Source: Escherichia phage AV109
Sequence record: OR352939.1
Reading direction: 5' to 3' (one strand)
Length of the DNA: 64,000 nt
Shown: one piece after another, positions 1 through 1,452 of the stretch
Position numbering within the stretch: position 1 is the first letter of the stretch
How the letters are laid out: every line of letters begins with the position of its first letter
The notes under the pieces: model-generated
What the model was told of the DNA's origin: nothing
The model's input: only the letters and a program-made list of their open reading frames with translations
Databases searched by the model: none
Program-made: the position numbers and the translations under genes

Positions 1-488
1 CATATGTTACCTTAAATATTAATAGTGGGGTTCATGTATTAGGTCGGGGAGGAAATGGCGGAAGTAACTCTGCTGGCGGAGCAGGAGGAACTGCAATAAA
101 TAACGGAATTGGAACTCGTTTAAGAATAAACAATAATGGTATTATTGGTGGCGGCGGAGGTGGCGGCGCTGGTGCTAGATACCATCCTTTCCCTCAAATG
201 GATATGATATTTGGTGGCGGCGGAGGTCGTCCATTTGGCGCAGCTGGCGCAGCAGGAGGTGGCGCAGCGGCAGCATCCGCTGGTACAATTTCTGCTCCTG
301 GTAAAGGTACTGTTTCTGGGGTTCACTATGGAGGAAATGGTGGAGATTTGGGAGCTGCTGGCAAATCTTCATATATTCAAGGTGGTACTGGAGGAACTGT
401 TCACTCGGGTGGTGCAGCAGGTAAAGCTGTTACTGGTAATGCTCCAACTTGGACTAAAGTTGGTACAATATACGGTTCAAGAGTATAA
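1..488 (+). CDS. 38: Tail-fibre adhesin gp38-like protein, C-terminal fragment (5' end lies outside window)
   Basis: Open in frame from window start to TAA 486-488; poly-Gly blocks (GGGGGGAGA, FGGGGGRPFGAAGAAGGG, GGTGGTVHSGGAAG) resemble glycine-rich motifs of T2/T6-type gp38 adhesins; immediately followed by holin t as in T-even phages. Confidence 0.55.
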   Translation, partial: YVTLNINSGVHVLGRGGNGGSNSAGGAGGTAINNGIGTRLRINNNGIIGGGGGGGAGARYHPFPQMDMIFGGGGGRPFGAAGAAGGGAAAASAGTISAPGKGTVSGVHYGGNGGDLGAAGKSSYIQGGTGGTVHSGGAAGKAVTGNAPTWTKVGTIYGSRV

Positions 489-519
489 TTTTGAATAAAT
501 ATCCTTAAAAGGAGGTATT

Positions 520-1179
520 ATGGCAACACCAAAAGTGGCATTTTCACCTAGTGATATTCTATTTGGGTTGCTAGATCGTATTTTCAAAGATAACGCTACT
601 GGAAAGGTTTTAATGTCCCGAGTAGCGGTAATTATTCTTTTGTTCCTAATGGCACTAATATGGTACAAAGGAAGTATTTTGCTGGATTATTATGTAAGAG
701 CTAAGTATGATACTTATACTGAAATAATCCAAAAAGAACGAGCTTTACGTTTTGAATCTGCGGCTCTAGAACAACTGCAAATAGTTCATATCTCATCTGG
801 TGCAGATTTTAGTGCTGTGTATTCTTTCAGACCTAAAAACTTAAATTATTTTGTCGACCTTATAGCTTATGAAGGCAAACTACCTAGCACAATTTCTGAA
901 AAGTCCCTTGGCGGATTCCCGGTGGATAAAACGGCCAATGAATATATAATTCATTTAAGTGGCCGTCATTTCTCATCTAAATCAGAATTTGCATTTTTGC
1001 CTACAAAATCTAAGACTGCCGAACTTTCTTATATGTATAGTTGTCCATACTTTAATTTGGATAACATCTATGCTGGAACTGTGACGATGTATTGGTATAA
1101 GGGGAGTAATATACTTGAGGAAGATCGCTTAGCGGCTATATGCAACCAAGCGATCCGAATACTAGGAAGGGCTAAATAA
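520..1179 (+). CDS. t: Holin T (lysis timing protein)
   Basis: 219 aa; near-identical in recalled blocks to T4 holin T (FSPSDILFG..DRLFKDNATGKVL.SRVAV, YMYSCPYFNLDNIYAG); AGGAGG RBS 8 nt upstream. Confidence 0.92.
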   Translation: MATPKVAFSPSDILFGLLDRIFKDNATGKVLMSRVAVIILLFLMALIWYKGSILLDYYVRAKYDTYTEIIQKERALRFESAALEQLQIVHISSGADFSAVYSFRPKNLNYFVDLIAYEGKLPSTISEKSLGGFPVDKTANEYIIHLSGRHFSSKSEFAFLPTKSKTAELSYMYSCPYFNLDNIYAGTVTMYWYKGSNILEEDRLAAICNQAIRILGRAK

Positions 1180-1452
1180 TTAGTTGTTAGAATACATCGC
1201 TAAATGACGATAAATATTTTCAAAACCTTCATTGAATTCACTAATCAGTGTTTTCTTTTCTTCGGCAGTTAAATTTGTAATTAGTTTTCTGAACGAATTC
1301 TGATTTAACTGCCGACCATCTTTTTTAATTCCAATCTCATTCAAGAATCCGATGAAACTTGCTCGGTCTTCAACAATATCTTCCCTAGAGAATTTAATCA
1401 AAATAGAAGCAATAGTAATAATTTCACGTACGATTTCAATGTCTTTATTCAT
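1180..1452 (-). CDS. asiA: Anti-sigma70 factor AsiA
   Basis: 90 aa; matches T4 AsiA along its length (REIIT.ASILIKFSREDIVE, FLNEIG, LNQNSFRK, EFNEGFE). Confidence 0.9.
   Translation of the reverse strand: MNKDIEIVREIITIASILIKFSREDIVEDRASFIGFLNEIGIKKDGRQLNQNSFRKLITNLTAEEKKTLISEFNEGFENIYRHLAMYSNN

Follow-up and report, generated by a model that had tools for sequence, protein, structure and literature searches.

Genes at the left end of the window

The 64,000-nt stretch of DNA analyzed here (the window), taken as bases 64001-128000 of Escherichia phage AV114 (OR352944.1), opens inside gene 38, which is followed by the holin gene t and the anti-sigma factor gene asiA. Window positions 1-1200 are 100% identical to OR352944.1 64001-65200 (megablast; 1,200 nt tested), and the record describes AV114 as a Mosigvirus (Straboviridae, Tevenvirinae) from pig waste in Denmark. 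An open frame on the plus strand enters the window across its 5' edge and ends with a TAA stop codon at positions 486-488. The complete gene 38 spans OR352944.1 63697-64488, encodes 263 amino acids, and starts 303 nt upstream of the window. Its 3' end (codons 103-263 plus TAA; positions 1-488, plus strand) corresponds to the receptor-binding specificity domain of gp38, as indicated by matches to Pfam GP38, PDB 6F45_D, and PHROG 2056. Upstream sequence was taken from a 10.5-kb locus of the same record (L001; OR352944.1 56000-66500), for which the window coordinate equals the L001 coordinate minus 8001.

The annotated gene order is g34-g35-g36-g37-g38-t-asiA, and gene 38 thus sits between gene 37 and the holin gene, the latter confirmed by Pfam (PF11031 Phage_holin_T; 1.6e-91). 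The holin gene t (219 aa; positions 520-1179, plus strand) and asiA (positions 1180-1452, minus strand; record annotation) belong to a Mosigvirus-type backbone and provide the context for the gene 38 cassette described below. ARAGORN detected no tRNA genes over the 64-kb window, and the two tRNAs listed for AV114 (PMC10844046) therefore both lie outside it. Rfam at the gathering threshold returned no family over the same 64 kb.

A Tequatrovirus-like tail fiber cassette in a Mosigvirus backbone

The phages aligned with AV114 were one Mosigvirus, AV110, and two members of Tequatrovirus, Bas43 and Phaginator. As far as approximately L001 6160, AV114 follows AV110 at 96-97% identity; within gp37 before this point (L001 5800-6073), 100-nt windows gave 96-97% identity to AV110 and 19-31% to Bas43. 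The sequence ceases to be AV110-like and becomes Bas43-like at approximately L001 6161-6192, within a block that all four phages have kept and that lies just after the gp37_trimer domain (Pfam; residues 691-765 of AV114 gp37), in the "GNAQLGTDGNITGGSGNFANLN" region of the protein. Downstream of the switch, identities to Bas43 and AV110 are 94.1% and 37.2%, respectively, in gp37 segment A (L001 6231-6690), 97.1% and 24.8% in the gp37 C-terminus (L001 7251-7667), and 29/30 and 0/30 nt in the g37-g38 spacer (L001 7668-7697). The gp38 gene itself (L001 7698-8489) is 97.5% identical to that of Bas43 and 96.0% to that of Phaginator, compared with 2.0% for AV110, which has no homolog and carries a T4-type gene instead. 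The relationship is then inverted: t with its 4-nt leader (window 516-1179) is 98.5% identical to AV110 and 73.0% to Bas43, and asiA is 98.9% and 75.8% identical, respectively. Distal gp37 and gp38 together make up a cassette of approximately 2.3 kb, at about OR352944.1 62160-64515.

The 3' recombination junction was placed, from the alignment and these identities, at a 21-nt block, ATAAATATCCTTAAAAGGAGG (positions 495-515, plus strand), that is common to Mosigvirus and Tequatrovirus. Sequence to its left tracks Tequatrovirus (positions 489-494 match Bas43 at 6/6 and AV110 at 0/6), and sequence to its right tracks AV110. The block contains the ribosome-binding site of t (AAGGAGG; positions 509-515) and most of AATAAATA (positions 494-501), which is T4-late-promoter-like in the sense of consensus resemblance only. 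At the site of AATAAATA in AV114 and the Tequatrovirus phages, AV110 carries a perfect T4 late-promoter consensus, TATAAATA. The incoming cassette likely brought with it a version, one base off, of what is probably the late promoter of t.

The first-pass annotation, made from the window alone, had proposed mosaic host-range determinants in an otherwise T4-like backbone. The mosaicism is borne out by the 94-97.5% identity to Bas43 of gp38 and most of distal gp37, as against 73-76% in t and asiA, and the backbone in question proves to be that of a Mosigvirus. The cassette is itself composite. Segment B of gp37 (L001 6691-7250; ~560 nt) matches none of the three comparison phages (38.3% to AV110 and 46.9% to Bas43, with Bas43 and Phaginator both at 46-47%), and in the database it is matched best by Shigella phage Sf22 (94%) and PaulHMueller (93%). 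The cassette therefore comes from more than one source, this segment being closest to a different phage. At an identity of at least 99%, AV114 is the sole record matching segment B; AV115 is not among such matches, though its gp38 is identical, and the two phages therefore differ there.

The fiber proteins on which the two arrangements are built also differ in their domains. AV114 gp37 (1,257 aa) has a Peptidase_S74 domain near its C-terminus (residues 1159-1216; 2.5e-15) and no Collar domain, and the converse holds for AV110 gp37 (1,038 aa), where a phage tail Collar domain is present and Peptidase_S74 absent (Pfam). A C-terminal Peptidase_S74 intramolecular chaperone is expected in fibers of the T2/S16 type, and in the T4-type system gp37 itself reads the receptor. 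The T4/AV110 arrangement, a gp37 tip plus a gp38 chaperone, occupies the same slot between g36 and t as the AV114 cassette and likewise gives the long tail fiber its means of primary receptor recognition, but its proteins are unrelated to those of AV114; AV110 gp38 is a 183-aa Caudo_TAP-like chaperone.

A perfect stem of 7 bp closed by a TTCG loop (AGAGGGC-TTCG-GCCCTCT) lies in the 30-nt g37-g38 spacer (OR352944.1 63667-63696, which is 305-334 nt upstream of the first window position). The stem-loop is kept in Bas43 and in Phaginator (30/30 nt for the latter) and is absent from AV110. It may act between the two late genes as an element of RNA stability or attenuation.

Distribution of the adhesin and direction of the exchange

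Window positions 1-1200 are covered in full at an identity of at least 95% by AV114 and AV115 only, the next full-length match being at 85%. The 10.5-kb locus is matched by other Mosigvirus genomes over 70-78% of its length, in two to four pieces; in AV110, the one Mosigvirus aligned, what goes unmatched is the gp37-distal/gp38 region. The same specificity domain (window 26-476) was also observed at approximately 90-92% nucleotide identity in FL37, FL38, kaaroe (which we take to be a Krischvirus), and the similar 164-kb MIZ2/3/6 genomes, with 90.6% amino acid identity over residues 8-263. FL37 and FL38 belong to Krischvirus, and the gene reportedly does not adjoin the holin gene there; their receptors are not reported in the study describing them (PMC12032242). 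This adhesin type thus circulates in at least three genera.

The discontinuity between 97.5% identity in gp38 and 73-76% in t and asiA implies that the exchange was recent, whichever way it ran, and the alternative to be weighed concerns direction only. The cassette could be ancestral or long resident in the Mosigvirus lineage of AV114, in which case Tequatrovirus phages would have acquired it from Mosigvirus, or both could have drawn on a common pool. Long residence or a common pool is favored by the presence of gp38 adhesins in 4 of the 10 Mosigviruses of the AV collection, AV109 and AV111 included (PMC10844046), and the Krischvirus genomes, with their ~90% identical specificity domain, show that this type of cassette moves across genera. 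Against this stands the distribution of the particular gp38 found in AV114. Approximately 20 distinct phages share it at a protein identity of at least 95% but match the whole t-asiA flank only at 82-85%, which suggests a Tequatrovirus-type backbone (the two phages checked are both classified as Tequatrovirus). AV114 and AV115 alone join it to a Mosigvirus backbone, and their closest Mosigvirus relatives in the flanks (e.g., AV110 and SHSML-52-1) lack it. We regard a Mosigvirus origin or a common pool as unlikely.

The most economical reading, with the direction taken from the distribution, is that a homologous exchange took place recently and that the donor was of Tequatrovirus type. In its full form, namely, a recent Tequatrovirus-to-Mosigvirus swap of approximately 2.3 kb through the GNAQLGTDGNITGGSGNFANLN region of gp37 and the 21-nt block, which would have replaced T4-type with T2-type recognition and left a chimeric adhesin, this account appears on balance the probable one. 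If it is true, the lineage was converted from recognition by the gp37 tip (with OmpC as the predicted receptor) to recognition by gp38 (with Tsx). The mapped junctions indicate where a host-range cassette can pass between Mosigvirus and Tequatrovirus backbones, which is of use for the engineering of phage cocktails.

Glycine-rich motifs and hypervariable segments of gp38

The 161 residues encoded in the window include 51 glycines (31.7%) and 21 alanines (13%). Their arrangement follows the architecture of five glycine-rich motifs (GRMs) together with four segments that are hypervariable (HVSs) defined by Trojet et al. in 2011 (PMC3157838); all positions below are on the plus strand. GRM1 (GRGGNGG; residues 116-122; positions 42-62) is kept in T2, T6, and Bas43. 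GRM2 (GGGGGGG; residues 151-157; positions 147-167), GRM4 (GGNGG; residues 212-216; positions 330-344), and GRM5 (GGAAGKAVTG; residues 238-247; positions 408-437) were placed by motif position and alignment, and GRM3 (GGGGGRPFG; residues 173-181; positions 213-239) is invariant in all four of the aligned adhesins. HVS1 (residues 123-150; positions 63-146), bounded approximately by the conserved glycine motifs on either side, shares 20/29 residues with T2 and 19/28 with T6. The three remaining segments are HVS2 (AGARYHPFPQMDMIF; residues 158-172; positions 168-212), with identities of 8/15 to T6, 1/15 to T2, and 15/15 to Bas43; the Ala/Gly-rich HVS3 (residues 182-211; positions 240-329), with 12/30, 5/31, and 30/30, respectively; and HVS4 (residues 217-237; positions 345-407), with 6/21, 4/21, and 20/21. 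The protein ends in a conserved C-terminal segment, NAPTWTKVGTIYGSRV (residues 248-263; positions 438-485), which was delimited by alignment with T2, T6, and Bas43 and in which W252, V255, G256, I258, Y259, G260, R262, and V263 are invariant (motif W..VG.IYG.RV).

Non-repetitive segments stand between the glycine blocks, and tandem repeats at the DNA level are minimal in gp38, amounting to two arrays of 2-2.4 copies with periods of 12 and 9 (TRF). The several poly-glycine blocks separated by short variable segments that the first-pass annotation had described are accordingly present, as the five mapped motifs. Its description of the glycine codons as strongly biased was overstated, the counts being 24 for GGT, 20 for GGA, 14 for GGC, and 3 for GGG. 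It was right to call the overlapping open reading frames spurious: four off-frame ORFs are present (32-133, minus; 120-326, minus; 175-372, minus; 211-498, plus), and none gave a match in a PHROG search. They arise because the Gly and Ala codons are GC rich and stop codons are sparse in this stretch, the GC content of which is 48%, compared with 36.7% for the whole window, and the minus-strand stop-codon density of which is approximately half of the window average. Real genes in overlapping frames were ruled out on these two grounds, i.e., the lack of a PHROG match and the low stop-codon density.

Assignment of gp38 to the adhesin family

The full 263-aa protein matches the Pfam GP38 family (PF05268) at 1.8e-69 and 234 bits (cutoff, 25 bits) over the entire profile (positions 1-218 of 218), and the 161 residues encoded in the window match it on their own at 8.1e-41. 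The window-encoded part also matches PHROG 2056 ("tail fiber protein; host specificity") at 1.6e-46. Residues 1-42, encoded upstream of the window, match Gp38_N (PF21721; 7.3e-18), the gp37-attachment domain. Of the solved structures, the receptor recognition protein of S16 (6F45_D) was matched at 3.7e-48 over residues 8-261 (HMMER), and 9V85, a GFP-gp38 fusion of PP01, was matched at 8.5e-32. Overall identities are 63% to T2 gp38 (MH751506), 56% to T6 gp38 (AP018814), and 98% to Bas43 gp38. In comparison with these three proteins, GRM1-5 and the C-terminal motif are conserved and the HVSs diverge; identity between the GRMs falls to 7-53%, except in HVS1, where it is approximately 68%. At the level of sequence, every defining feature tested is present, and the glycine-rich gene of AV114 is assigned to the gp38 adhesins of the T2/T6/S16 type. 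Homology to 6F45_D and 9V85 further predicts a polyglycine-II (PGII) sandwich fold with distal loops.

The frame occupies the gene 38 position, and the GenBank product name of its protein (WPK34987.1) is "tail assembly protein," both of which would fit a T4-type gp38, i.e., an assembly chaperone for gp37 that is absent from the virion. Some near-identical genes carry the related label "distal long tail fiber assembly catalyst." The protein nevertheless has no Caudo_TAP match in Pfam, where AV110 gp38 matches PF02413, and a BLASTP comparison with this T4-type gp38 of AV110 gave an E value of 14. The families that it does match are those of adhesins (GP38 at 1e-69 and Gp38_N at 7e-18), along with solved adhesin structures, and the authors who described AV114 class its gp38 as an adhesin (PMC10844046). 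The chaperone reading was ruled out by the BLASTP and Pfam results, and we give it practically no weight. Both product names are T4-chaperone names wrongly carried onto an adhesin, and the misleading name of WPK34987.1 could lead automated pipelines to misassign the receptor-binding protein.

Equally negligible is the idea that the frame encodes a collagen-like fiber or a low-complexity artefact resembling gp38 by composition only, a known risk with 31.7% Gly and 13% Ala in the window-encoded part, given that the 115 upstream residues, which are not glycine rich, also match gp38 (through Gp38_N and through an attachment domain nearly identical to that of T2), that the 6F45_D alignment extends over residues 8-261, that a Pfam search of the protein returned GP38 families only and no Collagen family, and that the translation has no periodic repeat (by eye, no evident G-X-Y periodicity). 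The first-pass annotation had favored a T2/T6-type adhesin over the T4-type chaperone, and that judgment stands: the domains, the S16 and PP01 homology, and the alignment with T2 and T6, in which every glycine-rich motif is conserved and the four hypervariable segments fall into place, all agree with it, and the upstream sequence of the public record, where another protein class such as a collagen-like fiber might have come to light, gives gp38.

Comparison with known gp38 adhesins

The likeness of the AV114 adhesin to its relatives changes along its length. T2, which has OmpF as a further receptor beside FadL, provides the closer match in the N-terminal part: 40/42 residues in the attachment domain (residues 1-42), compared with 28/42 for T6, and 47/73 in the beta-helix region (residues 43-115), compared with 26/73 for T6. 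All of the GRMs and the C-terminal motif of T2 gp38 are likewise conserved in AV114, but HVS2, HVS3, and HVS4 are unrelated in the two proteins, and FadL is the receptor of T2 (PMC8594841, PMC3157838), as against the Tsx reported for AV114. T6 gp38 belongs to the same family and has the same architecture and the same reported receptor, Tsx; it shares the core PFPQM with HVS2 of AV114 and TIS-PG-G-V-G with HVS3. It differs in that HVS identity is 29-53%, divergence is greater in the N-terminal and beta-helix regions, and T6 gp38 has an N-terminal extension of 4 residues. By these segment-wise identities, the AV114 adhesin is chimeric, with a T2-like attachment domain and with HVS2 and HVS3 leaning to T6, and the label "T2-like" is thereby reconciled with a T6-type receptor. 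Given HVS identities of only 29-53%, the residues that contact Tsx cannot be read across from T6, which is the classical Tsx binder. The AV114 adhesin may bind Tsx in a way of its own, different from that of the classical HVS set in T6.

The gp38 proteins of S16 (6F45 chain D) and PP01 (9V85) are whole-length homologs and solved PGII-sandwich adhesins, the structural model comprising an attachment domain, a beta-helix, the PGII sandwich, and distal loops (PMC12892980). They bind OmpC, and their hypervariable loops differ from those of AV114 in sequence and length. Much closer are the adhesins of the Tequatrovirus phages Bas43 (TadeuszReichstein), Phaginator, Kha5h, RB18, and Shfl2, which are, like that of AV114, 263 aa long and have 97-99% protein identity to it (96.0-97.5% at the nucleotide level). 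Their HVSs are essentially the same, Bas43 differing at 1 of 94 HVS residues, and the g37-g38 spacer is likewise the same in these phages, as is the gp37 C-terminus, which is of T2 type. They differ from AV114 in the genus backbone, with t and asiA only 73-76% identical. The receptor of Bas43 appears in a figure of the BASEL paper (PMC8594841) rather than in its text.

Receptor and proposed mode of adsorption

Vitt et al. (iScience 2024; PMC10844046) grouped the AV114 protein with the T2-like Gp38 adhesins and reported, from plaque assays on receptor-deletion mutants of ECOR4, that AV114 and AV115 recognize Tsx. This dependence is a whole-phage phenotype in one host, so it does not by itself prove contact by gp38 rather than by another fiber component; the adhesin itself presumably confers it. 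In gp38 adhesins, the GRMs are polyglycine-II helices packed as a "PGII sandwich," from which the hypervariable loops jut out to bind extracellular loops of outer membrane proteins (PMC12892980, PMC3157838).

By analogy, one AV114 gp38 would use its N-terminal attachment domain to cap the trimeric distal long tail fiber (gp37) at the tip. The five glycine-rich motifs would pack as polyglycine-II helices into the flat core of a PGII sandwich, and the four hypervariable segments would form distal loops touching an outer membrane beta-barrel protein, which in the case of AV114 would be the nucleoside channel Tsx. Binding of the long tail fibers would then lead to baseplate rearrangement and irreversible adsorption. 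The ~2.3-kb cassette would have been swapped by homologous recombination with Tequatrovirus-type phages at the two short conserved blocks, taking the place of the T4-type gp37 tip and gp38 chaperone of the closest Mosigvirus relatives of AV114. Taken as a whole, the explanation that positions 1-488 encode the Tsx-contacting specificity domain of gp38, carried in an exchanged gp37-distal/gp38 cassette, is very probably correct.

Adhesins of the gp38 type have been characterized since the 1980s and their structure has been solved, and the modular exchange of tail fiber genes has long been known in T-even phages. The adhesin form is not unusual, PMC3157838 describing it as predominant in T4-type phages. 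The adhesin class and the Tsx dependence of AV114 are already in print (PMC10844046). What is added here comprises the base-level junctions of the cassette, the submosaic gp37 segment, the chimeric T2-like/T6-like adhesin, and the misleading GenBank name; the protein itself is a textbook member of the gp38 adhesins, a correct but ordinary assignment of small discovery value. The literature differs with regard to the receptor of T2: the introduction of PMC10844046 states that T2 recognizes Tsx, and both the BASEL paper (PMC8594841) and Trojet et al. assign Tsx to T6 and FadL to T2. The former statement may explain why a Tsx-dependent adhesin was named simply "T2-like."
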